Shown: piece by piece, positions 20,282 to 45,440 of the stretch
How positions within the stretch are numbered: the stretch's first letter is position 1
Layout: the number at the start of each line of letters is the position of its first letter
Assembly: GCA_045535655.1 (NCBI GenBank)
Contig: JAZSMA010000032.1
Span: 1 to 47,164 of the forward strand
DNA: 47,164 nucleotides
From: Candidatus Nanosyncoccus sp.
Lineage (GTDB): Bacteria; Patescibacteriota; Saccharimonadia; Saccharimonadales; Saccharimonadaceae
Reading direction: 5' to 3'
Position numbers and translations under genes: made by a program
Notes under the pieces: generated by a model
The model's input: only the letters and a program-made list of their open reading frames with translations
Told to the model about the DNA's origin: nothing
Databases searched by the model: none

Positions 20282-20433
20282 GTTTTGCTTCTACTCCGGT
20301 CTTGAACATTGTGCAATTAGTCCGAGTTCAACGAGAGGCACTAAAGCACATTTAGATCGGACTCGCTGGGCTTGACGCTTCAGCAAATCGGAAGGCCCAG
20401 TTTAATCGTTCAAGACCGAATTAGGAGCAAAAC
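20282..20433 (+). ncRNA. Putative ~150-nt multi-stem RNA, antisense to the late-leader motif
   Basis: Closing stems gttttgcttcta/taggagcaaaac and cggtcttgaac/gttcaagaccg; inner stems agtccga/tcggact and ctgggctt/aggcccag; GTGCAATTAGTCC at 20311-20323. Confidence 0.7.
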
Positions 20434-20453
20434 ATAACATGGAGGTAATTATT

Positions 20454-20858
20454 ATGGCAAAGTTTCGCCGAGGGGTGAACCGCGTAACACCCGAACTTTA
20501 CGCGGAATTAAAACCAAAGCTAAAAACTCCAGCAGACCACAAAAAGGTTATGCGCGAGTATAAGATTGGTGATAGCACTTGTCGCTCAATCCGCAACACT
20601 GATTCTTATGAGGAATACCGAGCGCGAGTTGCTGATAAACGCAAAGCCACTCGTGACTTAGAGTCAATCGTTGAGCATGCGACTTATGATCGCGAACCAA
20701 AAGCAACAATGGTTGCTTACGAAAGTTCTAAGGAGCCAGAAGATGATGACAAACCCGGCATTGCAGCGCGCATTGTGGGTGTGTTTTTGGTAATCTGCCT
20801 AATGCTGATTGCAGCCGGCCTTACTTACGCTACTTTGAAATGGGCGTTTGGATTTTAA
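20454..20858 (+). CDS. Phage protein with C-terminal TM helix
   Basis: GGAGG RBS; basic N-terminus, hydrophobic tail. Confidence 0.7.
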   Translation: MAKFRRGVNRVTPELYAELKPKLKTPADHKKVMREYKIGDSTCRSIRNTDSYEEYRARVADKRKATRDLESIVEHATYDREPKATMVAYESSKEPEDDDKPGIAARIVGVFLVICLMLIAAGLTYATLKWAFGF

Positions 20859-20871
20859 CAATTAAATAAAC

Positions 20872-21025
20872 GAGTGGTGCCAGATAACAAAAAATAGCTA
20901 CGGAACTGGTTCAATGAGCGTACCGCAAATCGAAAGCCAAGCCACTCACCCTTGCCCACTGCGGAATTAGTTTTGTTTGTGTTAATTTGTATGACCTTTC
21001 ACAAATGTTCTCCTTCGCAGTGGGC
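20872..21025 (+). ncRNA. Putative structured RNA(s): a junction element and a large-loop hairpin
   Basis: gagtggt/gccactc and gccag/ctggt stems; gcccactgcgga/ttcgcagtgggc stem at 20954-21025. Confidence 0.5.
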
Positions 21026-21041
21026 TAAATGAAAGGATGAT

Positions 21042-21371
21042 ATGAACGATAATGAAATTTCACTCTGGACAAGAGTGCGAATATTGGACAAAAAGCTAGA
21101 TTGTCTAATAGATTTGATAGGAATAAATGGTTCATTGAGTAAGTGCGTGCTGGCCAGTACGGTTGGAGCCAGTGATAAACGCTATCAACGAACAGCCGAG
21201 AAATATGAAAAGCTATTTCAGGATTCAATCGTGAAATGTGGAGAGGAGATAAAGAAGATCGTGGGTGATAGATTCGAGGATTTAAGCGCAGAAGATGCCA
21301 AAAAGTTAAACGAAGCAGCACGTCAGACTTGCGGATTTGAAGCCACTTCGGAGGTTGGCGATGAGGCATAG
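21042..21371 (+). CDS. Phage hypothetical protein
   Basis: AAAGGA RBS, 109 aa. Confidence 0.65.
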   Translation: MNDNEISLWTRVRILDKKLDCLIDLIGINGSLSKCVLASTVGASDKRYQRTAEKYEKLFQDSIVKCGEEIKKIVGDRFEDLSAEDAKKLNEAARQTCGFEATSEVGDEA

Positions 21372-21678
21372 CCAAGCGTATTGTATCCGTCATGGCTATG
21401 GTGTCTTTGCCATACGAAATAAGCGTGAAGCAAAAGCTCTTTATGATTTTTGTGCCGAGCAGATAGTCGAGCTGTTTGGCAGACCGCCGGAGTGCCAGCA
21501 ACCACGGCTAGAAATATTCAAGTGGACAATGGATATTTATGCCAATAATTTTATGCTGGAGCCAGACAAAATACCGACAGAACCGATTAAGTGCCATTGC
21601 GGCCATTGTAGCGGTAGGTATATGCCTTATGATATTTGGTCGTATGCTACAGATCATGCACAGTTCTATTGGAGTTAA
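21361..21678 (+). CDS. Cys/His-rich phage hypothetical protein
   Basis: GGAGG RBS; CxxH and CHCGHC. Confidence 0.6.
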   Translation: MRHSQAYCIRHGYGVFAIRNKREAKALYDFCAEQIVELFGRPPECQQPRLEIFKWTMDIYANNFMLEPDKIPTEPIKCHCGHCSGRYMPYDIWSYATDHAQFYWS

Positions 21679-21679
21679 T

Positions 21680-22150
21680 ATGAGACAATACGAATCATCT
21701 TTACAAACGAGGGTGGCTGAATATCTCTGCCGACAATATCCAGATGTTCAGTTTCACTCCGACTTTGGATCGGGCGTGAAACTGTCTAAAATCCAAGCAG
21801 TCACGCAGCTTCGCCAAAATGGGTATCGCAGAGGGTGGCCGGATATGATTATTGCAAAATCTAAAGTTATAACGCTAGTAGAGCGAAGTGATGAGGAAGG
21901 TGGAAGTACAATTCAAATAAAATTTGGCTTATTCCTCGAACTCAAAAAAGACGGTGAAACGCTGTATCCCGGTCCGAGAGCCAAAAAGCGATTCAAATCT
22001 CTTGATGGCAAAGAATACAAGACTGAGCACCTAATGGAGCAAGCAGATGTATTGTTCAAGCTACGAAAAGCTGGTTACGTTGCCGAATTTGCCATTGGAT
22101 TTGATGAGGCTGTTAGGATAATTGACGAATATTTAGGAGGACAAAAATGA
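21680..22150 (+). CDS. VRR-NUC-like nuclease (putative junction resolvase)
   Basis: ESSLQ, GWPDMII, GLFLELKK, LRKAGY..EFAIGFDEA. Confidence 0.75.
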   Translation: MRQYESSLQTRVAEYLCRQYPDVQFHSDFGSGVKLSKIQAVTQLRQNGYRRGWPDMIIAKSKVITLVERSDEEGGSTIQIKFGLFLELKKDGETLYPGPRAKKRFKSLDGKEYKTEHLMEQADVLFKLRKAGYVAEFAIGFDEAVRIIDEYLGGQK

Positions 22151-22326
22151 ATAAAGTGAGGAACAAAATAAACGGCAAGATAGGAGTGTTCAACCCTCAC
22201 GAGGATAATGATTCCGGCGTGGTAGTTTACGCTTTACCAGAAAAAGAATACGAAATCGCTGGGCCAAAGATTGCCACATATAAAACGCGCAAAGGCTTTT
22301 GGCAAAGGTGGGAGGTTATAAAATGA
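22147..22326 (+). CDS. 59-aa phage hypothetical protein
   Basis: Manual ORF MNKVRNKING...WEVIK; AGGAGG RBS; ATGA overlaps at both ends. Confidence 0.65.
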   Translation: MNKVRNKINGKIGVFNPHEDNDSGVVVYALPEKEYEIAGPKIATYKTRKGFWQRWEVIK

Positions 22327-22517
22327 GAAGAACTTGTGGCGGAATTGAAACGGCCCTCCGGAATAAAAAGACCGGTCTTGTACATAAAATTATAGGTGTA
22401 GAATGTGAGCCGGGCGGTAGATGGAAGTTTCTAAGCTTACTTAATGGCCGGAAATATGAATATGACTCAATGGACCAATTAAAACGAGAATGGGAGTATC
22501 CAGTACGTGATAAATAA
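22323..22517 (+). CDS. Phage hypothetical protein
   Basis: GGAGG RBS, ATGA overlap. Confidence 0.6.
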   Translation: MRRTCGGIETALRNKKTGLVHKIIGVECEPGGRWKFLSLLNGRKYEYDSMDQLKREWEYPVRDK

Positions 22518-22701
22518 AGTCACACAGATTACTTGTGATTATTGCGGCCAGCTCATTGCGGAGTTCCCAGAAATCGAAAATAAGAAGGATGCCCTTCGAG
22601 AAGCTCGGCGGCAAGATAAAGAAATAATAGTTAATCATGGTAGACATTTCTGCGGCAGATATTGCTGGAACGAGTACCAGATTTACAAGGAGGAAGAATG
22701 A
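22507..22701 (+). CDS. Small zinc-binding phage protein
   Basis: TCDYC...HFCGRYC. Confidence 0.6.
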   Translation: MINKVTQITCDYCGQLIAEFPEIENKKDALREARRQDKEIIVNHGRHFCGRYCWNEYQIYKEEE

Positions 22702-22970
22702 TGGAGAAAGAATGGCAAAAAGCAACAATCGGTCAGGTTGTGCAATTTACTGAAAACCATAAATGGTGCGGAGCACTAGGCTTTGTTAGTGAAGTTAAAA
22801 AATGTGGCGATGACTATAGATTTATGATTGGTTGCACTATGCCGAACAACCAGACCAGTTGTGATACGGCTTACATATTTTCGATGTTAAGCGAGAATGA
22901 ATTTGAGCCTTTGTTGAATGGGCGAGTAGTTTTAATGCCTAAAGGAAGTGAAACGGAGGGCGAGAAGTGA
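22698..22970 (+). CDS. Phage hypothetical protein
   Basis: AGGAGG RBS, overlap. Confidence 0.65.
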   Translation: MMEKEWQKATIGQVVQFTENHKWCGALGFVSEVKKCGDDYRFMIGCTMPNNQTSCDTAYIFSMLSENEFEPLLNGRVVLMPKGSETEGEK

Positions 22971-23686
22971 GCAAAGTTCTAGCAATTCCCGACATACACC
23001 TTAAGCCTGTCATATTTGACCGAGCTGAAAAAATCCTCGAATCCGGTCAAGCGGATTTCGCCATTCAGCTTGGCGATCTCGTTGATGACTGGGGCGAGGA
23101 GTTCAATTACAAACTCTATGAGCGAACTATTGAACGAGCCATCAAGTTCCATCAAAAGTTTCCTAAAACGCTCTGGTGCATGGGTAATCACGACTTTGGC
23201 TACTACTTACCGGAATATGGCAGACGAGAAACTGGTCACAGCAGGATGCAAGAGGATACCATGGCCGAGCATATAGCCGAAATGATAGAAGTTGGTGTTA
23301 AACAACAAACAATTCATGTTGTAGATAATGTGATTTTTAGCCACGCTGGGCTAACTGATGACTGGGTTGCCACGCTTACGTTGGACGGCACAAACTACGA
23401 AATGAACGATTATATTGAAGTTCTGGCCAACAATTCAGAACCAGACTTACTTTGGGATGAAAACTCGCCAATTTGGACCAGACCACAAGACACTGGTGAA
23501 TTATTGTTTTCCGACAAAATGCAAGTAGTCGGACACACGCCAGTTAAAACAATCAAATTCGTGGATAATCTTTTGTCTACGGATGTATTCTCTACTTATA
23601 GAAACGGTGCACCATTTGGTGAGCGGCGATTCGCTATCGTAGATACGGTGAAAATGGTTTGGGAATACGCAAAGGAGGATGAGTGA
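22967..23686 (+). CDS. Calcineurin-like metallophosphoesterase
   Basis: DIH, GDLVD, GNHD, SHAG, GHTP. Confidence 0.9.
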   Translation: MSKVLAIPDIHLKPVIFDRAEKILESGQADFAIQLGDLVDDWGEEFNYKLYERTIERAIKFHQKFPKTLWCMGNHDFGYYLPEYGRRETGHSRMQEDTMAEHIAEMIEVGVKQQTIHVVDNVIFSHAGLTDDWVATLTLDGTNYEMNDYIEVLANNSEPDLLWDENSPIWTRPQDTGELLFSDKMQVVGHTPVKTIKFVDNLLSTDVFSTYRNGAPFGERRFAIVDTVKMVWEYAKEDE

Positions 23687-23901
23687 AAATTTGCATAGAA
23701 TATAATGGCCGATGGGTAGAGATGGATAAACCGGATCATAACTATGGTTCGAATATTGATACATTCAGAGAAATAGCCCAACTCGCTTTCGCTGCAGTAG
23801 AGCTTGAGTTCGTCGGTGAGATAAACGAAATACCGCCGGAACGACAACAAAAATACTTCGAGCCGTCTACGAAGTCCGTCGCCAGCAATAAACGCCAGTA
23901 G
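23683..23901 (+). CDS. Phage hypothetical protein
   Basis: AGGAGG RBS, GTGA overlap. Confidence 0.55.
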   Translation: MKICIEYNGRWVEMDKPDHNYGSNIDTFREIAQLAFAAVELEFVGEINEIPPERQQKYFEPSTKSVASNKRQ

Positions 23902-25798
23902 CTGAAAAGCTACTATCAGAAGTCCAATAACCACCGTATAACGCACGTACGTCAGCCGCAGTGGTCAATGTCTTACTGAATATGATCATTCCCACGTGTG
24001 AAGCCATTACAGGCTGATCTTGTGAGTAAATTAAGCCGTTCACGTCCAAATCGGCAGCCGAATTGGTAGGTTTCCGATTAATGCTACACTTATTATTCGA
24101 GCTGATGAAGAATATCGGTTTACCCACGCTCAATGTGATTGATACGGTTGTAGTCGTGAAGGCATCCACAGCGCGTACTTGAATATCCCACTGGTATTGG
24201 TTATCAAAGCTCAATACTAAATCTGTAGCTTGGTATGAGCTGCCACTTATTGTGACCGGCCTGTTCGTCCAGCTTCCCCATGATGAGTCAGTTGATTTCT
24301 TGTATCTGTAAGCGACTGCGAGTGTATTCTTCACGACATTGCTAACTTTGACTTGCGAATATGTACCACTGATTGCGAGTGTGGTTTGTGACTCGAAGTT
24401 ATTCACACGAGTTGCACTTGCGGTAATGGTCGGCACTGACCATGGAACCACTGTCACATTCTTGCTTACGGTCTTTGCAAGGCTCAATGAGTCGTTGGCT
24501 GCCACAGACAATGCGAGAGTTCCGGAAGCAGTTGGAGTCTTATTAGAAAATGTGCCTGAGACCGCCGCAGACGAGCTGTAAGCAATCTGAATGGACTGAG
24601 CGTTCAATGATGCCGTATAGCCGGTAATTGTCGCTCCATCGTTTGCTGTGGCCTTATTTGCGGTTGAAATAGTAACCTTTGGCTGCGATTGGCTTTGAAT
24701 GAATACTTGATTATTACCGGAAACGCTCACTGCAGTTGAATTTACATCTTCGTAGGTGAAGTTTGAGAAGTTCGGCGCGGTGTGAGTTGTTTTGGTGGTA
24801 AACGTCACAGATTTGGTTTCGCTCGCTCCACCATTCGGAGTATCTAACCGAGCTTGCAAAGTAACCGTCTTTGAGGTTGGCAGCGTAACGGTAAAGGTGT
24901 CTGTGGTGTTCGATACGGTACCGAATGAAGTCCAGTCGGTATATGAAGTTCCACCGTCCGTTGTGTAGCGATATTTACCGGTTCTCGTTTCTGCGCCACC
25001 ATCTGTTTGGCGAGTATATGAAAGCACAGCATTTACAGTATTGTAGGTCGCATACGCTTGCGAAGATAGTGAGAGTGCAGAGAGCGGCGGACATGGTAAG
25101 TAAAGCGTACCGGTAACTGTGGATTTGTTGCGCTGCGTATTCGATGCGTAACCACCATACCAGTATTTCTTGTTACCTTGGATAGTGAGCGCTGTTGAAC
25201 CTGTACTTGACGAGTTATTGACCGTAATTGTGGCTGAGGTTGTATTCTTCGATATGGCATACCGGTAACTGTTACCGTATGAGTTCTGAGCGAGAATTGC
25301 TGCCTCGATATATCTACCGGATGCGCTGGACGGATTACCATACGAGCTGATACTTACGCCGAATGTGGCCGAGTTGTAAGTCTTTGATTTCACCGTAACT
25401 GAAGGTGTAGATGGATCCGTATATGAAGCCGGCACTGTAATCGTTGTTGAACCGGAACCGTTGAAGTAGGCACCTACGCCAGACGATGACCAACTAATTG
25501 TAATCGTGCGTGAGTCTCCAGTAAACGTCTTGGAACAATGTACATACCAACCTTGCCAGTCGTTGTTATAACCCGGAATACTCGTAGCGGATGTCGCCGA
25601 AGCCGGAGTTCCGTCAATCGTGACGGTCATAGCTGTGCTCGAGGAATAGGTTTGGCCAGAGTATGTATTCGTTCTACGGAAGTAGAGATAACAATCAACG
25701 GTCTTTGACGAACCATTATCAGTAATCCATGTATCAATACCACCCTGAATGTATGTGGAGGTATTACTAATCGCTAAAACGCCTAATCCTGTCGACAT
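23867..25798 (-). CDS. Minor tail / receptor-binding protein (DUF859-like)
   Basis: Ser/Thr-rich beta protein, last gene of the tail module, C-terminal VYCWRRTS. Confidence 0.7.
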   Translation of the reverse strand: MSTGLGVLAISNTSTYIQGGIDTWITDNGSSKTVDCYLYFRRTNTYSGQTYSSSTAMTVTIDGTPASATSATSIPGYNNDWQGWYVHCSKTFTGDSRTITISWSSSGVGAYFNGSGSTTITVPASYTDPSTPSVTVKSKTYNSATFGVSISSYGNPSSASGRYIEAAILAQNSYGNSYRYAISKNTTSATITVNNSSSTGSTALTIQGNKKYWYGGYASNTQRNKSTVTGTLYLPCPPLSALSLSSQAYATYNTVNAVLSYTRQTDGGAETRTGKYRYTTDGGTSYTDWTSFGTVSNTTDTFTVTLPTSKTVTLQARLDTPNGGASETKSVTFTTKTTHTAPNFSNFTYEDVNSTAVSVSGNNQVFIQSQSQPKVTISTANKATANDGATITGYTASLNAQSIQIAYSSSAAVSGTFSNKTPTASGTLALSVAANDSLSLAKTVSKNVTVVPWSVPTITASATRVNNFESQTTLAISGTYSQVKVSNVVKNTLAVAYRYKKSTDSSWGSWTNRPVTISGSSYQATDLVLSFDNQYQWDIQVRAVDAFTTTTVSITLSVGKPIFFISSNNKCSINRKPTNSAADLDVNGLIYSQDQPVMASHVGMIIFSKTLTTAADVRALYGGYWTSDSSFSATGVYCWRRTS

Positions 25799-25799
25799 A

Positions 25800-27776
25800 T
25801 TAACTCTCCTTCTTTACAAACGCCCAGCCATCTGTTTGGGCTACAATTTTAATCGGTGGCATGTCAATTTCGTCTTTGAATGCACCTGTGTTCGCTGATA
25901 CCTCATCGGAACTCACCATTGCGGCAAGCTGATTATTCTTGAATACCTCAACGGCCTGCGAAGTTTGTCTCGTATATGATCCAGCCAAGTTATTATTCTT
26001 GACGGTCACACCATCTATGTTGATTTGCACCTGTGAGTTTGAGAATTCGCCGTTAGCCTGCGTCCATTGGCTGCGATAATTACCAACTGCGAGCATCATG
26101 TCAGTCACATAGAATTCGATGCCATTATCATTTGAAGCCGTAACGGTCAAAGTAAGTTCTGTGGAGTGCGGCAGAATAGCTTCTATAGCGAACTCGCCGT
26201 AATTTGAGGACTCATTATTGCCGAGTGAAATAGTCCAAACACCCTCCTGCGTTCCATCCGTCAAAGTAATGGTCGCAGAGCCCACAGCGGTCTTTTTGAG
26301 CCTGCATGAGAACGAATAGTAGGTCTTGCTCGCTTCTGCGATGCTATCATCGTCCGGCTTTACTGTGATTACCTGAGAAATAGTTTTGTTAGCCAGCTGG
26401 ATTACTTGACCGGAGAGCGAACCATTCGCACTCGCATCCGCTGAAGGTATCGCCGACCACGTTCCGCCGCCTGATAATGTCCAATAAAGTGGTAAGTTAT
26501 CGGAGTCTACTTGATAGAAAGCCGAGTTTTTTATCAAGTTATTACCACCGGAGTTCTGCACGCTGGTTACAACCGAAGAAATGTTTTGTGTGATATTCGT
26601 AAAATTAGAGTTGGTTTGGTTCTCAAAGCTGGTCTGTTCCTCTACGATTGAGCGGATTTCTTGGTTCTGCTTGTCTACCTTAATCTCGGTATTGTAGATG
26701 GTTTTCATAACACCACCGGCCAGCGCGTAATCTGTCGTGCTTTCTTCCGGAGTCACGCCTTTGAGTTCTTCCTTAATTCCGCCGTCCACTGTGATTTTGT
26801 GGTAGGTGACTATACCTTCGACTTGGTTGCCTTGGTCATCTTCAAACTCAAGGCGATCTCCACATTCATACCAGCCGAGACCAACCGTTGTAGCTTCAAA
26901 GCCGGTCCACTCAATGCCATCTACGGCTGCGAGTAGGTTGCTGATAAACGCTGTGCGGTCATCATCCATAATTTCGTTGTTAGCAAGCTTGACTTCGGTC
27001 AAACCGTTGTTCTCTACGCTTTGCTGGTCAGTAACGGCAATATTATCCTCTTGTGGTAAGCGAGCGAGCACTACGGAGTTCACTGGGCCATAGTGTGAGC
27101 TTACAGTCAATGATTTCAGTTTCTCGTAATCGAGCGAGCCTTGAACTGTCGTTTGATGCGGTCTGAATATAATCTGTTGAGTACGGTTGTCAACAATGAC
27201 CATAGAAGCCGTTGCGCCTGCAATCTCGGCTAAAATGTTGCGGTAGTTCTCGGACGAGATATTGGAATATAAATCTTCTTGAATTGTGTAGTTGTAGTTC
27301 GGCAGCGTGGTCATATCCGCCACTGTTAATCCGAACCTATCACCAATCGCAGCCACCAAATTCGCAATGGTAATCGGGTAGGTAATATTCGCCTCGTAAC
27401 CAACATTCTGCATCTCGCTCATTTTGCCAATGGCTTTGATGGTCGTTGTTTCGGAGCCCTTCTTGGTCGGTGCTTCGGTCACTGTGAAATACCCATAATC
27501 AATCTGCTCGTAGCTGTCATTACCAATGAGCAGGCTGTAAGTAATTTGAATTGTCTTGCCAATTAAGTCATAGTTTGAACCCAGTAACTTGACCGTTGCG
27601 ACTGTAGCCACAGAGCCAAATAGTTCACCGGTACTTTCGAGAGAAAACGAAATAAGATTGTCTGTATCAGAAATCGTTACAGGGCTGCCGCCAAATGGAT
27701 CTACTACTATGCTCGCCGAAACTCTCTTTACTGGAGCGGTTGCGGCTGTCTTAAAGCTATCTGATACATTAATCAT
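25800..27776 (-). CDS. Baseplate hub / Tal-like tail protein
   Basis: Position after the distal tail gene; coiled coil followed by a GGNNLIKNS carbohydrate-binding-like module. Confidence 0.7.
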   Translation of the reverse strand: MINVSDSFKTAATAPVKRVSASIVVDPFGGSPVTISDTDNLISFSLESTGELFGSVATVATVKLLGSNYDLIGKTIQITYSLLIGNDSYEQIDYGYFTVTEAPTKKGSETTTIKAIGKMSEMQNVGYEANITYPITIANLVAAIGDRFGLTVADMTTLPNYNYTIQEDLYSNISSENYRNILAEIAGATASMVIVDNRTQQIIFRPHQTTVQGSLDYEKLKSLTVSSHYGPVNSVVLARLPQEDNIAVTDQQSVENNGLTEVKLANNEIMDDDRTAFISNLLAAVDGIEWTGFEATTVGLGWYECGDRLEFEDDQGNQVEGIVTYHKITVDGGIKEELKGVTPEESTTDYALAGGVMKTIYNTEIKVDKQNQEIRSIVEEQTSFENQTNSNFTNITQNISSVVTSVQNSGGNNLIKNSAFYQVDSDNLPLYWTLSGGGTWSAIPSADASANGSLSGQVIQLANKTISQVITVKPDDDSIAEASKTYYSFSCRLKKTAVGSATITLTDGTQEGVWTISLGNNESSNYGEFAIEAILPHSTELTLTVTASNDNGIEFYVTDMMLAVGNYRSQWTQANGEFSNSQVQINIDGVTVKNNNLAGSYTRQTSQAVEVFKNNQLAAMVSSDEVSANTGAFKDEIDMPPIKIVAQTDGWAFVKKES

Positions 27777-27777
27777 G

Positions 27778-28152
27778 CTATACCCTCTTACTCACTGGGA
27801 TTAAGTTCACACTGAAGGACTTATACAGCCCTCTTGCCTTATCAAGCATTGGCAATTCATAATCGCCGGCGTAATAATTGGCGGTCTTGGTTGCCTTGCT
27901 CTGTGGATCGAAATATGTAACCGAGAAATAATCTTGATTAAGTAATGCAGCAATACTGGAAACTTCATTTTCTGTAAGCCCATCCCTGAATGTGAGCAAC
28001 AATTTCGGGAATACTCCGATTAAGCTGGCCGAGATATTACCGGCCATGTTGCGTTCCGCATCCTTCCAAAGCTTGTTGTATTGGACAGAATACGACCTTA
28101 GTCCAGAAATTGCTGTGCTTCCAATCGTCAACAGCGTTCCACTAAATGCCAT
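27778..28152 (-). CDS. Distal tail protein (DUF6711-like)
   Basis: AERNMAG...FSVTYFDP...YYAGD...FSVNLI. Confidence 0.65.
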   Translation of the reverse strand: MAFSGTLLTIGSTAISGLRSYSVQYNKLWKDAERNMAGNISASLIGVFPKLLLTFRDGLTENEVSSIAALLNQDYFSVTYFDPQSKATKTANYYAGDYELPMLDKARGLYKSFSVNLIPVSKRV

Positions 28153-28164
28153 TATTAATCCTCC

Positions 28165-28242: not shown

Positions 28243-28265
28243 ATAATCCTTTCATCGCCCCTCCG

Positions 28266-29431: not shown

Positions 29432-29487
29432 ACAAAAAACACCTCTGCTCTAGCAGAAGTGCAATCAGTCTAACTTAATTATATCAC
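29432..29487 (-). promoter_or_regulatory. Late leader A: extended -10 + GACTGATTGCAC + terminator (upstream of holin/lysin)
   Basis: Minus strand: TGATATAAT-taagtta-GACTGATT-GCACTTCTGC-taga-GCAGAGGTGT-TTTTTG. Confidence 0.8.
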
Positions 29488-30148: not shown

Positions 30149-30199
30149 ACAAAAAACACTCCAAAGTTGGAGTGCAATTAGTCTAATTCTATTTTACCA
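30149..30199 (-). promoter_or_regulatory. Late leader B
   Basis: Minus strand: TGGTAAAAT-agaatta-GACTAATT-GCACTCCAA-ct-TTGGAGTGT-TTTTTG. Confidence 0.8.
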
Positions 30200-30411: not shown

Positions 30412-30493
30412 TGTTATAATTATGAGGTAAGTACACTTACTCGGGCAAAAAAGGCAATCCAACTGCGAGGGCCTTTTTTGTTTGTGTTATAAT
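30412..30493 (+). promoter_or_regulatory. Tandem extended -10 promoters flanking a short hairpin/terminator unit
   Basis: TGTTATAAT at 30412-30420 and 30485-30493; gaggtaagt/acttactc hairpin; caaaaaaggc/gccttttttg. Confidence 0.55.
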
Positions 30494-30520
30494 TTAATTA
30501 AGTTAAACAGGAAAATAAAA

Positions 30521-30916
30521 ATGACAAAGAAAAAGCAGGACAAAAAGAGATACATCATCATTGGTGTATGTGCATGTGTTGCTATTATTGCAGCCATAGT
30601 AGCCGTGGTATTGCTTACGCAGCCACAAAAGAAAGATCCATATCAAGAGGCATACGACCAAGCGGAGGTAATGCGATTGGACGCTATAGCCCAGCAAATC
30701 CGACTTAAGGCAGAAACCTACCATGATACGCATGGAGTCTGGCCGGAATCATTAGAGGATATTCATGAACCGGAAGATCGCCTACCGGGCATGGTATTTA
30801 ACTCATTCTCGAATATGGGCTTCCTATTGAGCTATATCGGCGTAAACGGTGAAAGAATCGTCTATTGTTCCGAGGATTTAGCCAAGACATCGCTTGGCCA
30901 AAATAATTGTCCTTAG
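30521..30916 (+). CDS. Moron: membrane-anchored pilin/GspG-like protein
   Basis: Opposite strand with its own promoter; TM helix followed by AETYHDTHGVWPESLEDI; C-terminal Cys pair. Confidence 0.6.
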   Translation: MTKKKQDKKRYIIIGVCACVAIIAAIVAVVLLTQPQKKDPYQEAYDQAEVMRLDAIAQQIRLKAETYHDTHGVWPESLEDIHEPEDRLPGMVFNSFSNMGFLLSYIGVNGERIVYCSEDLAKTSLGQNNCP

Positions 30917-36741: not shown

Positions 36742-36756
36742 ATTCTTTACCTCCTA

Positions 36757-37596: not shown

Positions 37597-37616
37597 TTTA
37601 ATACCTTTCTAAATTA

Positions 37617-38189
37617 TTAAAATGCTCTATAACCATCTTTGGAAATAATTCCATTACTGGCCGAGCCTTCAGTGGTTTTGCCACTTGTGGTTGTCGAGCC
37701 TTTGTCAGTCGGAGTCCTACCAGCGAGTTTAGATTTGACTCCTTCCTCGACTGCTTTGTTGAACTCTGCCTTTAGCGTCTCGATATTTTGGTCGGTTTTA
37801 TCCGAGTCGGCATCTACCACAAAATCTACGAGTTTGGTCGAGATACCGGCCTCATTTAGCTTTTCAATCGCCTCAGACCTGCGCTCACGCATTGTGATTT
37901 CGTGTTCGCGTTTCTCAAGCTCTTTGATTTGAGCTTCCTGAGCCTCTTTCGCTCTTTGTTCCTCGGTCAATTTGGATTGGCGTTCCCACTCGGCCTTTTC
38001 AGACGCAAGTGCATCGGCCTTCTCCTTCTCGAACTCGTCACGTAATCGCTTACGTTCCTCCGAGAGCTTCTGCCCGAGTTGTTCTTGAGTGAAAGTTTTG
38101 CTACTACCCTTGTTGTCTTTAACATCAGACTTCTCGGCACCGGTAGCTTCATTGCCATCTGATGTTGAGTTGTTAGCTTCGTCAGCCAT
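37617..38189 (-). CDS. Capsid scaffolding protein (DUF4355-like)
   Basis: GGAGG RBS; KTFTQEQL, charged coiled coil, AVEEGVKSKLAGRTP. Confidence 0.8.
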   Translation of the reverse strand: MADEANNSTSDGNEATGAEKSDVKDNKGSSKTFTQEQLGQKLSEERKRLRDEFEKEKADALASEKAEWERQSKLTEEQRAKEAQEAQIKELEKREHEITMRERRSEAIEKLNEAGISTKLVDFVVDADSDKTDQNIETLKAEFNKAVEEGVKSKLAGRTPTDKGSTTTSGKTTEGSASNGIISKDGYRAF

Positions 38190-38234
38190 ATTACCTCCGA
38201 TTTTTACGTGTCGCCACGAGTTAATAGTTAAATA

Positions 38235-38315
38235 ACAAAAAGCACCCACAGCGTGTGGGCGAAAAGAAACACTCACAAAACTGTGAGTGCAATTAGTCTT
38301 ATGATTATTATATCA
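38235..38315 (-). promoter_or_regulatory. Late leader C with a tandem second terminator (upstream of scaffold/capsid)
   Basis: Minus strand: TGATATAAT-aatcata-AGACTAATT-GCACTCACA-gttt-TGTGAGTGT-TTCTTTT, then GCCCACA-cgc-TGTGGGT-gcTTTTTG. Confidence 0.8.
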
Positions 38316-38332
38316 TATCAAAGCAAACAAGC

Positions 38333-38590
38333 CTAATTTTCCGGCATCCCCCAATTGATGCCAGCTTCACCAGACTTCTTGTTCACGAACCATGGTGGAC
38401 TGATGGCGTATTTGTCGGCGATCTGCTGATTAGTTTTCCAGTCAATCCGGGCTTTTTCGGGGATTACGCACACTTCGTAGTAGTAATTCGTCTTATCTTC
38501 GTCCAATAAAATGAGATACAATCGGCCAGCCGGTTTATCTACCAGCTTCACCGCGTGCTTCAGTATTTTTTCAGCTTCAGCTCTGTTCAT
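38333..38590 (-). CDS. Probable immunity protein for the MuF toxin
   Basis: 85 aa, ATGA-coupled directly after the toxin-bearing MuF gene. Confidence 0.55.
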   Translation of the reverse strand: MNRAEAEKILKHAVKLVDKPAGRLYLILLDEDKTNYYYEVCVIPEKARIDWKTNQQIADKYAISPPWFVNKKSGEAGINWGMPEN

Positions 38591-40164
38591 TTTCTACCTC
38601 GCATGAATATCTTAATTATATCATCATTACCGGTAATCTGCATGTTATCCATCCGATAAAATGCCAAACGTTCAGAGCGGCTTAGGTATTCTTCAATACT
38701 TACTACCTTACCGGGCTGTGGATCGATAAACTTGACCTTCCCATTCTTTACTTCAGCAACCCACGTATGACCGAAGTTTTTGTTCTTGTATTTATTAAGC
38801 ACTGCATAACGGCCATCTGGTTGTTTCTTGAGTGTATTGATAAACTTGCTGCCAGAAATAAAATTTGGGGAGACTTTTGGAAAATCTTTTGTCTTTGGAT
38901 CTACAAAGAATTCCTTACCCATCAACGATATACCGCCATTATTCGGGTTAGCGGCTACATCGTAACCACGTCTGCGCATTTCATAAGTTGGAACACAACG
39001 CTGACAATTAATCTTATATGAGAGGTCGAGATTGTAACGCGGATTCGCACCCTTCATGGCTTCCGTTTGAGTCATCGGTAGGCCCTGCTTCACACCAATA
39101 GCGTCCAAATTATTGTTGCCGAGCACTGGTTTAAGTCCGCTCCTCGTTATACGTGACATCTCTTGGAGAATGCCATGTTCTTTTTGCCATTCGTAGTAGT
39201 TCGTATTCTCGACTAATCTGGTTTCGTCAGTCACGCCATCACGCATACTACGCTGCCTTGATTCAAACCCATCTACAACTGGTACGATAGTTGATCGGCA
39301 ATATGGATGGAGCGGAGTTACATTCTCGCCTTGCTCTGCGTCTTTGACATTGAACACTTTGCTATCCATGCTTCGGCAAATATCAGAGGTCCGTTCATCC
39401 AGTGTGGCCAGAAACTTAAACTTCTTGATGCCAAGCTCTTTATATGATTCTAGCTCACCCTTGTTCTCGAAATAATTGGTTTCTGTACGGACCAAACGGC
39501 TGGCGTTAGAAAATCCAACGTCAAATCGTTCCATAACTTCGCGAATTGTCTTTTCTGGAGCTTGACCAGTAGCGACTGCTCGTGCAAGTATGTCTTGTAG
39601 TGAATTCGCCAGAACATCGGTATTCTTCCAAATCCTCTCGGAATAATTACTGCCTTCGAACTTGGTCTCTAGTATCTTCTCAATGGTCCTCTGGTTGAGC
39701 GTAGCAAAGGCTGTATTCGTTCCGGTGCCACTCAATACATCGTAAATGGTCCGGTAATAGGTATTTGTGAGCGTCTTTTCGTATGACTTGGTAGAGATGT
39801 TACGCTCTTGCATTGCCACCTTTTTCGACTCAGCCCAAAGCTGCGCCTCAAGCATGCGCAGACGGCTCATTCGTCCTTTGAAGTTTTCAGGCAATGAAGT
39901 ATCAAGCCCAGCTTTCGCCATGTCATTGAGAAACTTGGTGATATTGCCTTTCGGTTCAATTTCCTCTAGGAGTTCTTGGTTAAATGTCTCATCGTTCCGG
40001 TAGTAGCTCGCATAAGTCTCTTTGACGGTATTCACTACCGATCTGGCGGCTGAACGATAAGTGCTCTGGATTTTCTTGAGATACTGAATGGAGGATTTTT
40101 CAGCACTCGTCAATCGCTGCAGTGACCTTTTCTCCCAGTATTCTTCAGGCTGATACTTTGGCAT
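38587..40164 (-). CDS. Minor capsid protein MuF (SPP1 gp7-like) with C-terminal papain-fold toxin domain
   Basis: RLVRTE, ATLDERTSDIC, PLHPYCRS; then NCQRC...RRRGYDV...GHTW...IDPQ. Confidence 0.85.
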   Translation of the reverse strand: MPKYQPEEYWEKRSLQRLTSAEKSSIQYLKKIQSTYRSAARSVVNTVKETYASYYRNDETFNQELLEEIEPKGNITKFLNDMAKAGLDTSLPENFKGRMSRLRMLEAQLWAESKKVAMQERNISTKSYEKTLTNTYYRTIYDVLSGTGTNTAFATLNQRTIEKILETKFEGSNYSERIWKNTDVLANSLQDILARAVATGQAPEKTIREVMERFDVGFSNASRLVRTETNYFENKGELESYKELGIKKFKFLATLDERTSDICRSMDSKVFNVKDAEQGENVTPLHPYCRSTIVPVVDGFESRQRSMRDGVTDETRLVENTNYYEWQKEHGILQEMSRITRSGLKPVLGNNNLDAIGVKQGLPMTQTEAMKGANPRYNLDLSYKINCQRCVPTYEMRRRGYDVAANPNNGGISLMGKEFFVDPKTKDFPKVSPNFISGSKFINTLKKQPDGRYAVLNKYKNKNFGHTWVAEVKNGKVKFIDPQPGKVVSIEEYLSRSERLAFYRMDNMQITGNDDIIKIFMRGRK

Positions 40165-40169
40165 GAGGA

Positions 40170-41522
40170 TTACTCCTCATCTTCGTTATCGTTTGGTTTG
40201 TCTGTTCCGTAATTTCCGAGGTCCATATCCTCACTGGCTTCTGCTTCGGCCAGCTCAACAGTTTCTTTGGCATCTTGCACGAATGAAAGTTGCGCTGCCA
40301 AAGTTTCTTTGTCTACGATACCGGAGCCAACGAGGTTGTTAATCATCTGGCTGGTCTCAAGGTCATTTTGTGGCAATGCGCGCTTAAATACAGCGTCTAT
40401 TTCTTCAGTAGGTACTTTGGACATACTGGACTTTGTTACGAGGAAGTAATTGTAGATACGAAAACGATCCATGAGTGCATCCTCAAAGTAACGCTCTTTG
40501 TCTTTGATGTGCTGCTCAAACGCCAGCAATTTATAGAGAATAGCTACACCAGAGGAATTACCAGCGAATTTCTCATCGCTCATGTCCGGAGTCATTGAAA
40601 TCTTGTGAATATCGGTTGCGATAGTCTGACGCAATACATCCGCATCCGCTTCGTCAATATTCTTAATAATATATTCAATCTTCGAATCCGGTGGTAAGTT
40701 CGAGATAATTCGGCTCTCTTTGAGTTCTTTGCGCTGTTTATCATCAAAATCGGAACCGTAGAATGCAAGAATTGCATCTACCAAGCGTTCGCGGTCAATT
40801 ACGCGGTCACTCTGCAAAATGTTGTAGGCATCAATGAGCGAAATCACCGGCTCGAAATCGCCTACGCGGTCTGAGTCGTTTGGATACTCAATGATTGGCA
40901 CTTCACCGAATGAGTGCGTTGAGTCATCTTCTTCGTTGCCAATGAGCTCGCCATTCTTCAGTGTTCTCTCCATGACCATTGTAGAAGTGAGAATGGTGGC
41001 CTCGAACTGATTGCTGATTACCTCGCCCTTTTCATCGTATGAAGGCACGTAGACAATAGCGAACATCTTCTCGTGCTTTACGGTGTCATCGTAAACCAAA
41101 ATCACATTGCGTGGATCCACACGAGTAGACCAGCTTTCCGAGTTCTCATCGGTATAGATACGCTCAAATGCGTGACCAAATACGGAAGCATCTTTCGCTA
41201 GTTCAACATCCAACTTGGAGATTGTCTGCTTGCGGTATAGGTCAGTAATCGCTTTAATGTTATATTTTTCGGCTGCGAGATATTGCACCGGATTACCGAG
41301 TAAGTAACCGACATTTGTCTTGCTAATGTAACGAGCGAAGTTTGTGACGGCTAGAATTTGATGTGGCGCTTCACGACTCACGACTGCCTCGTTCATCATG
41401 TAGGCGTATAGTTTGTTATAGTGCTCAATCTGTTTCTTGCGAATGTTGCCGGTCAGCAAATTGTTCACGACTTGTGCCGTAGGTTCCGTACCTTTTGGCA
41501 GATAATAGACTTTTGTTATCAT
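40170..41522 (-). CDS. Portal protein, SPP1 gp6-like
   Basis: GYLLGNPV, HSFGEVPIIEY, GDFEPVISLIDAYN, GNSSGVA. Confidence 0.92.
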   Translation of the reverse strand: MITKVYYLPKGTEPTAQVVNNLLTGNIRKKQIEHYNKLYAYMMNEAVVSREAPHQILAVTNFARYISKTNVGYLLGNPVQYLAAEKYNIKAITDLYRKQTISKLDVELAKDASVFGHAFERIYTDENSESWSTRVDPRNVILVYDDTVKHEKMFAIVYVPSYDEKGEVISNQFEATILTSTMVMERTLKNGELIGNEEDDSTHSFGEVPIIEYPNDSDRVGDFEPVISLIDAYNILQSDRVIDRERLVDAILAFYGSDFDDKQRKELKESRIISNLPPDSKIEYIIKNIDEADADVLRQTIATDIHKISMTPDMSDEKFAGNSSGVAILYKLLAFEQHIKDKERYFEDALMDRFRIYNYFLVTKSSMSKVPTEEIDAVFKRALPQNDLETSQMINNLVGSGIVDKETLAAQLSFVQDAKETVELAEAEASEDMDLGNYGTDKPNDNEDEE

Positions 41523-41531
41523 TTTTCCTCC

Positions 41532-42980
41532 TTAAAATCCGTTTGAGAACACCGTTCTCTGAGTCCTGCCGAAGCCTAAATCGGCTTCTGTAATTATGCG
41601 AGGCTTACCTCGTGCTGTTATTGACTCGTAAATGGCCGCCAAGACATCTACGGAGTCATCGTGTGCGTTCTTGCCTTTACGCTGGTAACTCATTACCTGC
41701 TTATAGAAGTCAGGGAAACGAATGTGCCAGTTATGCGGCATGTAAACGTGGTTCTGCACCCAAGCCGAGCTAGCGAGGATTCGGCTCTCCTTGTTGTGGG
41801 TTTGAGTCTGCGAGGTTATGACTGTTTTGTTTGAATTGAATGTTTCTTTCAATAAACGTTCCACATTCCGCGCAAAACCACGTCCGCCATTATTGCTCTC
41901 AATCACAGCCTTTGACACTTCGCCACTAAAGAGCAGAGTGGCGACTTCGGGTTCGGTCTTTTCCATTGACTCGTCCGAGAATACGAGGTCGGTAATGTAT
42001 GCCTCGTCCTCATAGACGATATAGTTAATTGAACATAGGTAATCGGTGCCGGTATCTGCAGTATCCGTATAGTTGAGCGTTTCGCCCTTTGGTAATTCTT
42101 CCCAAATCTTGAACTCGCTATACAGCCGGCCAGTAACATCAATGGGTTTCTGGTTGTAGTTTGCCTCCACGATGTCTACGTTCATTTCTTGCTTTAGAAA
42201 TTCGTAATCACCTTTGCTCAATATTTCCTCACAGAGCATCTTTCCTTTGTCGTCTTGGGCTCGGTAGGCTATCAGCTCTACATCATCGCCAAATGCGCCC
42301 AGAATGCGTCCTGCGAGGTCTTTTTCGCCCCACCTCGTCATAATGATGATCGCTTTTCGCTTGCCCTCTAAACGTGAGAGCATCGTATTTGTAAACCAGC
42401 TCCAAGTATCGTCCAGAGCGTTCTCATTGTACGCTTCTTCGGCTGAACGTACCAAGTCATCGCAAATCAGATAATCGCAACCGAACCCTGTGGCCGTACC
42501 GCCCGGACTGGTTGCGAGATAGGATACTTGCGTTTGCCCTTCAATCGTCCACATCTGCGCGGCTGCTTCGCCATACTTCACAGTGGTGTCGAATATATCG
42601 GAGTAAACAATGTTTTCGCCAACCTTTTCCGTCTGGATCATATTTCGGACTGAACGTGAGAAAATGCTCGCCAGCCGTTCATTGTAGGATGCCGTCATAA
42701 TGCGAGTGCTGGGCTCTCTACCGAATAGCCACGCTGTCGTATCTTGCGCTGTGAGCGACTTACCATGGCGAGGCGGAGCGTTAATCACTAGGAAATGCTT
42801 TGGCGACTTCTCAATGAAATCCTCGATTTTGTCAGCCATATCACGTAGAAATGTGCGGTCCTCTTTGTAGAAGCTCGGATGCATAACGCGGCAGAAATCC
42901 CACAGCGTCTTGCGAGCTAATGCAATATCAAGCTCACGCTCTGGCACTCGGTCCAATATCTTCTGCTCGTCCGTTTTCAT
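41532..42980 (-). CDS. terL: Terminase large subunit
   Basis: APPRHGKS, TGFGCDYLICDD, MTRW...DL.G, HDDSVD. Confidence 0.92.
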   Translation of the reverse strand: MKTDEQKILDRVPERELDIALARKTLWDFCRVMHPSFYKEDRTFLRDMADKIEDFIEKSPKHFLVINAPPRHGKSLTAQDTTAWLFGREPSTRIMTASYNERLASIFSRSVRNMIQTEKVGENIVYSDIFDTTVKYGEAAAQMWTIEGQTQVSYLATSPGGTATGFGCDYLICDDLVRSAEEAYNENALDDTWSWFTNTMLSRLEGKRKAIIIMTRWGEKDLAGRILGAFGDDVELIAYRAQDDKGKMLCEEILSKGDYEFLKQEMNVDIVEANYNQKPIDVTGRLYSEFKIWEELPKGETLNYTDTADTGTDYLCSINYIVYEDEAYITDLVFSDESMEKTEPEVATLLFSGEVSKAVIESNNGGRGFARNVERLLKETFNSNKTVITSQTQTHNKESRILASSAWVQNHVYMPHNWHIRFPDFYKQVMSYQRKGKNAHDDSVDVLAAIYESITARGKPRIITEADLGFGRTQRTVFSNGF

Positions 42981-44476
42981 GACTTCCTTTCGAACCTGCT
43001 CGGCCTGTTAAATCTGTCCTGCAACCACTTTCCGACATCGCCATCGTTGAAGCTTGCATCTGAGGTTGAGATGAAATCCCAATCCTTTGCTTTGTCGGCA
43101 ATGTCTGGAATGTGCCTTTTCATAATCTTTTTATCAGGGGAATCAACTCCGCCAATCTCCCAATAATTCCCATACAACGCCCTTATCATAGGCTCGTACG
43201 GATATTTCTCTAATACTTCCAGCATCTTCTTGCGGTTAATCAGCATGGGTTTGTGGACTGCGTAATTGAGTTCTGGCTTGCCAGCTTCAACGAGCAACTG
43301 CTGGAGCTTGCGTAATTGTCTTGTCCAATCAATCGACTTGCCTCGGCTGGCTTCGGTTGATTCTATCTTTTCCGACAATGTTCCGTCATACTGAACCGGC
43401 ATGTCCTCACGCATCGGCTGCAATACGAAGAAATCGTCATTGAATAGCCAAAAGTCCTCTGTAATCTTGTCATTCCTGCATACCATCTCCATCATCCGGC
43501 GGACGTTCTGCCACTTCGTAGGCGCGCCTTGAAGCACTCTAACATTCTCGTCTGGGTTCATACCATTTGGACATCCACCATAGAACCAAAGCTTGTGGAA
43601 CTTCAGGTTCTCACAAACGCTGCGTAATGAATAGCGCAATTCTTCGTTGTATGGAGTCTCTTTGAGGAAGTAGACTACATCGTATTTGCCAGCTTCTCTC
43701 GTGCCAACGCCGTACTTTTGGAATATCGGTTTATCGTAGTTTCGCTTGATGGCCCAGTCAATCCAGCCAAAACGCTCTGGATCCGTCTGCTTTTCGCGTA
43801 GCTTGCATAGCTCTTTGTCTAATCCGGCCAAATACTCTCGGCACATACCACCACGACAAATTGACTTGTTATCATCTAAATAATGGCGCATTAGCACCTG
43901 TGGCGCATGATAGAGCCCTCTATTCGCCAATATACACTCGGCATTGAATAGCTCATCCTCGCCGAATGTCATGCCTTTTTTGAACTTGATTTTGTTCTCG
44001 TCTAGGAAACTCTTTTTGTACATCTTATTCCACACCATTGAGGTATACGCTGGCGTATAATCCAGCCCATAGAACTTCTTTGGAGCACATTTTCGGACTG
44101 GTCTGAAGTTCGGGCCATGCATATAACGATATTGTCCGAACTGAATAACGTTGAAATCATGGCGCTGCATTTTGGTCATGACATCTATTGCGTCATTGGT
44201 GAGCGCGTCATCTCCGTCTAGGAAAGCAATGTATTCACCCTTGGCTTTGGCCATCCCGAAGTTGCGAGCTTCCGAAACACCGGCGTTCTTTTTCTTGTGG
44301 TAGATCTCCCAGCCGTATTTCGCAGCGTAACTGTCGCAAATCTCACCGGAGCCGTCTGTTGAGGCATCGTCAACCATAATCACCTGCATGTCGGTATTGG
44401 TTTGGCTCACAACGCTATCGAGACAGCGTTTCAGAAATGGAGCTTTGTTGTAGACCGGAATAATCAAGCTAATCAT
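42977..44476 (-). CDS. GT2 glycosyltransferase fused to a Stealth-like phosphotransferase domain
   Basis: ISLIIPVYN, VDDASTD, GVSEARN, FLDGDD, GEDELF; then YDVVY...EELRYSLRS...LFNDDFF. Confidence 0.8.
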   Translation of the reverse strand: MISLIIPVYNKAPFLKRCLDSVVSQTNTDMQVIMVDDASTDGSGEICDSYAAKYGWEIYHKKKNAGVSEARNFGMAKAKGEYIAFLDGDDALTNDAIDVMTKMQRHDFNVIQFGQYRYMHGPNFRPVRKCAPKKFYGLDYTPAYTSMVWNKMYKKSFLDENKIKFKKGMTFGEDELFNAECILANRGLYHAPQVLMRHYLDDNKSICRGGMCREYLAGLDKELCKLREKQTDPERFGWIDWAIKRNYDKPIFQKYGVGTREAGKYDVVYFLKETPYNEELRYSLRSVCENLKFHKLWFYGGCPNGMNPDENVRVLQGAPTKWQNVRRMMEMVCRNDKITEDFWLFNDDFFVLQPMREDMPVQYDGTLSEKIESTEASRGKSIDWTRQLRKLQQLLVEAGKPELNYAVHKPMLINRKKMLEVLEKYPYEPMIRALYGNYWEIGGVDSPDKKIMKRHIPDIADKAKDWDFISTSDASFNDGDVGKWLQDRFNRPSRFERKS

Positions 44477-44988
44477 TTCTTATCACCTTTGCTTAAGTTT
44501 TTCAGTGCCTTCAATGTTCGCAGTTCTTCTACGGAAAGGCTATCGAGTGGCGTTTCGATGTGTCGCACCGGAGTAACATCTTTGGTCTCCTGTGGATCGA
44601 AATTACCGTTGAGTTTAATCTTAATCTCTAACGCCTTCGCAATCTCTGCCGGAGTAGAGTTCGGATTGTCGATAATCTCGTCCAGCCGGTTCAAGTCCTT
44701 CTGAATACGCTCTGGATCTTTCTTCGCTCGTATCTTTGCCATAGCGCGATATGAAAAATCGTTTTGTGGACGGCCACCACAAGTATTGTTTGGCTGATAC
44801 TCTGACGTGAAAGGTTTCCCAATTACTCGCGGTTTCTTTGCGTTTTTCTTGACAGCTTCCACTTTTTGTGGCGTTTCCACTTTTGGCTTAGGTTTCGGAG
44901 GCTGAACCGGTGCTTTCGGGGTAACTTTTGCAGCAGAAATCGAGATCGGTTTCTTCTTCCTACTAATATCAATCTTTTTCTCTGCCAT
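44473..44988 (-). CDS. Putative terminase small subunit
   Basis: Basic protein; KPF...QP...GGRP; LDSLSVEELR; upstream of terL. Confidence 0.6.
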   Translation of the reverse strand: MAEKKIDISRKKKPISISAAKVTPKAPVQPPKPKPKVETPQKVEAVKKNAKKPRVIGKPFTSEYQPNNTCGGRPQNDFSYRAMAKIRAKKDPERIQKDLNRLDEIIDNPNSTPAEIAKALEIKIKLNGNFDPQETKDVTPVRHIETPLDSLSVEELRTLKALKNLSKGDKK

Positions 44989-45005
44989 AAAAATTACCTC
45001 GCTTA

Positions 45006-45323
45006 TTATTTAGTTATTTGCTTTTCAATTTGCCGATACCAATCATCATATTCTTTGATTTTCTTCGTCATGAGACCATTGCCGCCATTGTCATGATAAA
45101 TATCGTATTCTTCGTGAATCCGGGAATAATTCTCGGGTAGTTTATGATTCAAATGGTAATCTACTTTATCCTCCACCATCATCTGTAAGATGGACTGCTT
45201 TGCATCGTTTCTTGCTGATGTCGTTTTGTGTTCGTCTAGCTTTTGGTTGGTCTTGCGACTTTGCCAAACTATCGTGAATATTGTTGTTATTGCGCCGATT
45301 AAGGCCACTATGATTTCAATCAT
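45006..45323 (-). CDS. Small membrane protein (holin-like family)
   Basis: N-terminal TM; Y..YH..GGNG motif; start placed at ATG 45323. Confidence 0.6.
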   Translation of the reverse strand: MIEIIVALIGAITTIFTIVWQSRKTNQKLDEHKTTSARNDAKQSILQMMVEDKVDYHLNHKLPENYSRIHEEYDIYHDNGGNGLMTKKIKEYDDWYRQIEKQITK

Positions 45324-45381
45324 TTGTTTGTTACGCTCCGAAGCATTAATTCGTCTCCTTTTTCTAGGTGAATGATGGGCA

Positions 45382-45440
45382 CAAAAAACACTTGCCAATC
45401 AATCTTGACAAGTGCAATAGTCCTTGAGTTAATTATAGCA
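45382..45440 (-). promoter_or_regulatory. Late leader D (upstream of the packaging operon)
   Basis: Minus strand: TGCTATAAT-taactca-AGGACTATT-GCACTTGTCAA-gattga-TTGGCAAGTGT-TTTTTG. Confidence 0.8.

Follow-up and report, generated by a model that had tools for sequence, protein, structure and literature searches.

Co-variation between a structured RNA and the leaders of late genes points to an RNA-based switch in a prophage of Candidatus Nanosyncoccus sp. Part of this prophage lies in the 47,164-nucleotide (nt) stretch analyzed here (assembly GCA_045535655.1, contig JAZSMA010000032.1, positions 1 to 47,164 of the forward strand; hereafter the window), and the remainder on contig C54 of the same assembly (G000). 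The early operon encodes a structured RNA, RNA-1, which displays in a loop a 12-nt segment, the guide, complementary to the 5' ends of five late leaders. That RNA-1 and the late leaders pair, and that the pairing is under selection, we regard as nearly certain. The geometry of the pairing predicts activation, and we judge it probable, on sequence grounds, that RNA-1 is a natural trans-acting RNA antiterminator of the late genes that would replace Q.

RNA-1 and the late leaders

Four minus-strand leaders, each with an extended -10 box, a hairpin and a U tract, lie where an initial annotation of the window had placed them. The common layout that it described holds for the -10 box, for the hairpin, whose 5' arm starts within the shared motif, and for the U tract; the spacer, given there as a fixed 7 nt, varies from 7 to 9 nt. 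Its count of four is correct for the window, and the full set numbers five, with leader E on contig C54, outside the window (G000:C54 7468-7520, plus strand). Leader A (29432-29487, minus; target 29459-29470) carries its terminator before holin-like, endolysin and distal tail genes, of which the annotation had named the lysis genes and omitted the tail genes. Leader B (30149-30199, minus; target 30172-30183) precedes a 131-aa gene and tRNA-Ile. Leader C (38240-38315, minus; target 38287-38298) is followed by a second hairpin and U tract and stands before the scaffold, capsid and tail genes. Leader D (45382-45440, minus; target 45412-45422, one bulge) precedes genes for 130-aa and 171-aa proteins, a glycosyltransferase, terminase and portal. 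By sequence, promoter-proximal intrinsic terminators stand before late genes, and the host sigma-70 promoters of the leaders look constitutive.

Details of the motif also agree with the earlier description: leader A carries a single A>G change that gives a G-U pair with the guide, leader D is one base shorter and forms 12 base pairs (bp) with one bulge, and hairpin interiors vary while the motif is kept, as they do in close relatives in IMG/VR. With at most one mismatch, the 12-mer has four matches in the window vs an average of 0.31 over 100 shuffles, one of which reached four; leader D, an indel variant, falls outside this count. Promoter and motif in this layout occur five times in the 628-kb assembly, all within this prophage (four in the window, one on C54). 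Half of the 12 matches on viral contigs (L002, L003, L007, L009, L011, and L012) were treated as chance, as they showed by eye no leader hairpin or likeness to the prophage.

The antisense copy of the 12-mer, reported within a multi-stem element of the early operon, is indeed present at 20311-20322/23; the guide proper spans 20311-20322 on the plus strand. The surrounding RNA-1 (20282-20433, plus) is delimited by its fold, its z-score, covariation in its closing stem, the same architecture in relatives and its intergenic position. It consists of the closing stem P1 (20282-20307 with ~20408-20433) and the hairpins P2 (~20323-20365) and P3 (~20366-20400). The fold has an energy of -59.8 kcal/mol (z -6.9), and none of 200 shuffles was equally stable. 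RNA-1 has no U tract and covers no ribosome site. Rfam models matched tRNA-Ile alone over the window, and nothing up to E 10 over 20200-20520, which covers RNA-1 and not RNA-2, the second early RNA described below. An antisense -10 box lies 550 nt beyond the guide (20852-20860, minus); an antisense promoter behind RNA-1 is present in only 2 of 22 prophages (G000 and G138).

Guide and leaders across related prophages

Relatives were found through the capsid protein, which matched in 36 of 368 other genomes of the genus (33 strongly) and in 2 of 400 genomes drawn from the order (one weakly); outside the clade, RNA-1 was sought through capsid homologues. The closest of these homologues belong to Candidatus Saccharibacteria, some of them to Ca. 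Nanosyncoccus. As alternative queries, a 139-aa protein returned no loci and a 643-aa tail protein one locus, which lacked an early region. The comparison covered the prophage regions of 30 relatives (28 of the 33 strong matches plus G053 and G065) and that of the source assembly, 31 in all.

Each relative carries one to five detected promoter-leader-terminator units. The leader motif is shared within a prophage and differs between groups, so that about twelve motif families can be told apart. Two or more leaders sharing 8 nt were found in 17 of 30 Saccharibacteria loci vs none of 50 homologous-capsid loci from other hosts. An RNA-1 element complementary to the prophage's own leaders was located in 22 of the 31 prophages, on the early-operon strand and, in nearly all, between genes; in eight others (G013, G020, G028, G051, G053, G113, G215, and G320) the fetched contig lacks the early region. 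Co-variation of guide and leaders, which the initial annotation had proposed as a check, was found over nine sequence families: nine leader-motif families each have their own matching RNA-1 loop. A third candidate leader in G213 was dropped prior to counting, and an initial G065 guide candidate was discarded for lying within a host gene. Searches with the exact motif in G057/G035, G051/G060, and G032 found leaders and no guide, as pairing by the guides there extends across just 10-11 nt or includes wobbles.

The loops change on a conserved scaffold of ~130-175 nt, in which a long closing stem leads into an 11-15 nt loop and two hairpins, P2 bearing a conserved apical motif, a possible protein site. 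When the guide is kept unpaired, most of the 22 elements share this layout, with a closing stem of 19-33 bp and a loop that is longer in one family; G280 is aberrant, and G193, G188, and G270 differ internally. In 17 of 18 non-redundant RNA-1s the shuffle z-score is -4.7 or lower. Two-sided changes in P1 occur at all 21 modelled pairs and are lost in slid controls; the alignment was fitted to the model, so these counts lean towards it. G057, G035, and G319 have one recognizable scaffold, on which G319 carries a different loop and, to match, different leaders.

Substitutions in the leaders were counted in 62 leaders of 18 prophages, with four near-duplicates omitted and leader D set aside as an indel. 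All 18 distinct differences from a perfect complement are A>G opposite a guide U or C>U opposite a guide G, and none breaks pairing (binomial p 5e-5 among transitions; 12/12 outside the stem, p 1e-3). Ten of them are internal to the core and eight lie at its ends. Since a DNA operator predicts no G-U bias, substitutions that are all G-U compatible indicate pairing between RNAs.

Searches blind to the leaders arrived at the same elements. A covariance model trained on five families recovered five of seven held-out RNAs in the same places and on the same strand (E 0.07-3.8). Among its 21 matches in 1.32 Mb, those beyond the training families included G270, G278, G223, and G222 at the exact places, the remainder being one reverse-strand self match and one probable chance match; a smaller search contributed G065. 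A scan using structure alone picked out 38 candidates in 32 regions, nine of which are known guides, and in eight of those nine regions the guide was the lowest-energy candidate.

No neighboring protein is common to the RNA-1 loci. Where RNA-1 ends within ~10 nt of the stop codon of a convergent gene (G161, G376, G213, and G279), no gene follows on its strand and at most one small open reading frame (ORF) lies upstream; the early operon of these four is, to all appearance, shrunk to little more than RNA-1. The lack of a following gene fits action in trans, not a cis switch, and argues for RNA-1 as a trans-acting RNA.

Further elements border these loci. Upstream of RNA-1 we noted by eye an apparent tRNA integration site (G279, G213, and G280) and a Shine-Dalgarno sequence followed by a frame of 3-6 codons, ~130-250 nt away (G279, G213, G280, and G376). 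Strong hairpin runs continue downstream of RNA-1 in L038 8565-8720 (G060) and downstream of the degenerate form in G032:C22 30730-31180. On the late strand, a repeated promoter-hairpin unit of ~55 nt with a nested stem and no match to the late motif lies upstream of the scaffold leader in G213, G013, G028, G161, G280, and G376, and a different repeated promoter-hairpin unit recurs in G270, G333, and L174.

A candidate antitermination mechanism and its alternatives

In most leaders pairing starts 7-10 nt past the -10 box, which by the usual spacing is about +1 to +3 of the predicted transcript. It ends 3-5 nt into the 5' arm of the terminator in 30 of 42 distinct cases, and invasion of the terminator is neutral or favorable in 33 of the 42. 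These positions suggest a model in which host sigma-70 polymerase fires the late promoters continually and stops after ~35-45 nt. Transcription of the early operon would then supply RNA-1, perhaps excised from the mRNA at its long stem by RNase III, which is present in 30 of 30 near-complete relatives. RNA-1 would bind the 6-9 free bases at the 5' end of the leader and next displace the lowest 3-5 pairs of the terminator, and polymerase would read on into the late genes. To wind into the closed loop, the target would have to have a free 5' end, which would explain its position at +1. Short terminated RNAs would soak up RNA-1 and thereby set a threshold. A protein helper is possible, either host Nus factors or a conserved 128-aa late protein. 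The latter (G000:C54 7535-7921) is encoded by the first gene of the first late operon and is the sole non-structural protein common to 17 of 20 prophages; its structure model (mean predicted local distance difference test, pLDDT, 82) has no family match and no PDB or BFVD match by Foldseek.

Several observations weigh against antitermination by RNA-1 or against parts of the evidence for pairing. The energetics are modest: in most cases invasion gains ~0-3 kcal/mol and leaves a 4-7 bp hairpin, in 9 of 42 it is unfavorable (one a scoring artefact), in four the pairing does not overlap the hairpin chosen by script, and the time window for pairing, ~25-30 transcribed bases, is short. Equilibrium co-folding of whole RNA-1 with a finished leader brings no gain, although such models cannot represent pairing within a closed multiloop. 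The minimum-energy fold of the window RNA-1 buries the guide, the open-loop form common to relatives lying 3.6 kcal/mol above it, and in free RNA-1 folds the guide is unpaired with a probability of only 0.36-0.83. The early strand out-folds the opposite strand in only 13 of 18 cases. As to supply, consensus scans for an early-operon promoter were no richer than shuffles (15 vs 14.1 sites) and identified none; a terminator sits 5' of the operon, and excision would put a leftward promoter upstream yet behind that terminator. RNase III was not found in the source assembly, which is 82% complete. RNA-1 may also not be universal, since G032 has leaders and a full early region, yet only a degenerate or collapsed element with two mismatches.

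The detection of guides has limits of the same bearing. Own pairs have a mean duplex energy of -16.8 vs -6.1 ± 2.7 kcal/mol across families, and the best partner is the own-family guide for 22 of 22 leader sets; guides were initially selected by complementarity, which makes both this cross-matrix and the permutation value drawn from it (1 in 362,880) circular in part. The guide is not the top duplex match in several prophages (e.g. G057, G060, G283, G193, G270, and G333), and the core ends in the substitution count were set by hand. The covariance model missed G193 and G333, and its recoveries are weak, with E up to 3.8; the structure descriptor recovered only 9 of 22 guides.

Could regulation run in the reverse direction? 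The short terminated leader RNAs would then act like the P4 immunity RNA, binding the RNA-1 loop and shutting down or degrading the early transcript, and another protein would permit late read-through. Constitutive-looking promoters would make such RNAs abundant in the lysogen, terminated late RNAs of lambdoid phages can become small RNAs (sRNAs) (PMC7547250), and no CI-like repressor was found among the ORFs scanned in the window and C54. One copy would suffice for this purpose, yet there are 2-5 motif leaders per prophage, each overlapping the base of its own terminator. RNA-1 offers no U tract or covered ribosome site to act upon, in four relatives there is no gene behind it, and no Q-like protein is annotated or conserved among the early genes. 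We consider reversal unlikely.

Slightly less likely still is action at the promoter, with RNA-1 pairing to the non-template DNA or the initial transcript at +1 to +12 and guiding or modifying polymerase, possibly together with a protein such as the 128-aa product. The start of the target 7-10 nt after the -10 box in most leaders suits this idea, as does a tolerance of the G-U type, which is also expected of RNA-DNA hybrids, and the conserved apical motif of P2 could be the protein site. Against it, overlap with the terminator arm is kept while spacer and sequence change; no RNA-guided effector family is annotated in the window or C54, and the 128-aa protein itself lies behind a leader and has no fold match.

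The small invasion energy and short time window would matter little if RNA-1 were merely a sponge, neutralizing short leader RNAs that repress something else and leaving termination unchanged; a short RNA that is already finished would pair easily through its free 5' end. The motif has no other target in the genome, however, and the late genes would still require an activator, which makes a sponge improbable. A DNA operator of a phage protein, with the early copy as one more site and a location just downstream of each promoter that is typical for operators, was among the possibilities raised initially and is very improbable: it fails to explain the co-variation, the G-U-compatible departures by which alone the early copy differs from the leaders, the kept overlap with the terminator base, the constant inversion of the early copy with respect to its transcript, its place in the loop of a conserved fold, and a motif orientation that tracks transcript direction where lysis cassettes are inverted.

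RNA-2, prophage setting and known systems

The early operon begins with a second RNA, absent from the initial annotation. RNA-2 (16847-16950, plus; ends approximate) is a hairpin followed by a second hairpin domain. Its loop (16855-16869) is perfectly complementary to the 15 nt that open the leftward helix-turn-helix (HTH)-integrase leader on C54, and the 5' arm of its hairpin matches the anti-Shine-Dalgarno element of that leader. An exact 14-16 nt complement between the RNA-2 loop and the start of the HTH-integrase transcript is present in 11 of 16 prophages examined; of the other five, three are without that end and the promoter pattern failed to pick up two; in one of these two, G057, the pair can be made out by eye, with one G-U. 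The pair occurs in eight distinct, co-varying sequence versions. Co-folding of RNA-2 with the leader gains 9-21 kcal/mol, with both segments bound in seven of nine structures, and raises the unpaired probability of the HTH ribosome site in seven of nine. The hairpin between the two target segments has a weak U tract, and RNA-2 is therefore read as an activator of translation: it likely frees the Shine-Dalgarno sequence of the HTH gene, which the anti-Shine-Dalgarno element is predicted to cover, and would act earlier than RNA-1 and in a similar way. The direction of this regulation is less settled than that of RNA-1, and the HTH protein may be a repressor, an excisionase or a replication factor.

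Taken together, two re-targetable guide RNAs from one early operon would run development, RNA-1 as a protein-free antiterminator and RNA-2 as a natural toehold switch, with exchange of loops and leaders creating orthogonal groups akin to the immunity groups of repressors and operators; we give this broader picture an even chance. If it is true, a single scaffold with no fewer than nine orthogonal guide-leader pairs, 40-nt targets and a standard sigma-70 promoter would offer a compact programmable transcription switch, and the small targets and standard promoter open the mechanism to direct tests, either in vitro or in E. coli. It would also give a first view of gene timing in phages of the reduced-genome candidate phyla radiation (CPR) bacteria, among which neither Hfq nor Rho was found in any of the 31 genomes of the genus searched.

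Host genes extend to an ftsA-like gene (15528-16766), beyond which the prophage begins. Its plus strand in the window is the early operon (RecE-like, RecT and small ORFs), and its minus strand carries the late genes (terminase, portal, scaffold, capsid, tail, and endolysin), with a reverse transcriptase at the end. C54 holds the integrase, a 96-aa protein with weak HTH similarity, two tRNAs and the first late genes. The attachment-site (att) core (16773-16782, strand not assigned) was placed by gene order and by the junction in the related viral contig L004, which can be aligned to C54 as far as the core and to the window beyond it. The excised order in L004 is HTH-integrase-att-RecE; excision is thus predicted to join the HTH-integrase operon to the early operon bearing RNA-1 and RNA-2. 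The core overlaps the predicted ftsA promoter and has the sequence of an extended -10 box in reverse complement. Relatives integrated at other host loci (G138, G188, and G057) have a core of the same kind, and the integrase therefore appears to target host promoters. The terminator-like hairpin 5' of the early operon (16814-16837, plus) lies between the prophage end and RNA-2, which directly follows it, and is found at the same place in relatives examined. A search for a third RNA acting on it gave best matches of 11-13 nt in unrelated places and, in G222, one of 16 nt at the opposite end of the prophage.

Elsewhere in the prophage, a diversity-generating retroelement spans window positions 45596-47164 and G000:C54 8992-10955, with the reverse transcriptase at 45596-46615. 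Its template repeat (46801-46906) shares 86.8% identity with C54 10480-10585, where a 537-aa gene ends, and what is likely an accessory gene is split across the contig ends. A minor head protein (MuF; 38587-40164) has a C-terminal papain-fold domain resembling glutamine deamidases. Within the late region, a 144-aa moron-like gene on the plus strand (30412-30916) has its own extended -10 boxes.

To our knowledge, late genes of studied phages are activated by proteins (antiterminators, activators or sigma factors), and direct activation of read-through at intrinsic terminators by a short trans-acting RNA is known mainly from engineered small transcription-activating RNAs (STARs) and from tRNA in T-boxes. 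In a T-box, a tRNA ligand acts in trans to prevent intrinsic termination by pairing to the nascent leader, which is long and structured and contains an antiterminator; the late leaders here are ~40 nt, lack an antiterminator and have no Rfam T-box match. TnpB/TldR, Cas12f and the IS110 bridge RNA have a dedicated effector protein encoded beside the guide, whereas genes flanking RNA-1 differ between families and are absent in some. The C4 RNA of P1/P7 is cut from a longer transcript, pairs with phage leaders through short loop segments, and represses. P4 CI is a phage RNA of the same build (PMC4825925). RNA-1 and RNA-2 likewise pair short loop segments with phage leader targets, and RNA-2 shares with both the use of two separate antisense segments. 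P4 CI promotes termination (PMC4825925), whereas the geometry of RNA-1 pairing predicts activation, and the Rfam models of P4 CI and P1 C4 have no match in the window, nor up to E 10 over the interval searched around RNA-1. IsrK of Gifsy-1 is a prophage sRNA that turns on translation in trans, exposing a sequestered ribosome site, as predicted for RNA-2; unlike RNA-1 and RNA-2, which are encoded in a different operon from their targets, it is its target's own terminated leader and works via a protein antiterminator (PMC4825925).

Natural sRNAs are able to act as activators through antitermination (PMC12281614); the case cited there and in PMC8632103 concerns Rho. The zipper attenuator of pLS20 (PMC13401043) was set aside as a model as it acts in cis. 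Full-text literature searches, which left most subscription papers uncovered, returned no description of this arrangement; they included a review of phage sRNAs (PMC12197685), and two 2026 preprints on mining of non-coding elements do not mention Saccharibacteria in the main text. Supplements of large structured-RNA screens may contain RNA-1 as an entry without a name.

Two further systems resemble the one proposed here. The pR'-tR' region and Q of lambdoid phages combine a constitutive late promoter, a terminator just downstream, a short off-state RNA and a switch from an early gene (PMC7547250), as proposed here; in this prophage there are several late promoters instead of one, and the predicted switch is a base-pairing RNA. 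No Q homologue is annotated, and among the ORFs scanned in the window and C54, many of them small and without a family, so that a remote homologue is possible, none matched a Q-family antiterminator in PHROG or Pfam. STARs prevent termination by occupying the 5' arm of an intrinsic terminator (PMC5648800). They are trans-acting RNAs complementary to a linear 5' region and to that arm, and so is RNA-1 to its leaders. Synthetic like all of their kind, STARs bind the hairpin's 5' half (PMC5648800), whereas the RNA-1 match is natural and 10-12 nt long, includes no more than 3-5 nt of the stem and is presented by a loop on a structured scaffold. By these comparisons RNA-1 falls outside the named natural families and would work like a STAR in the role of Q.

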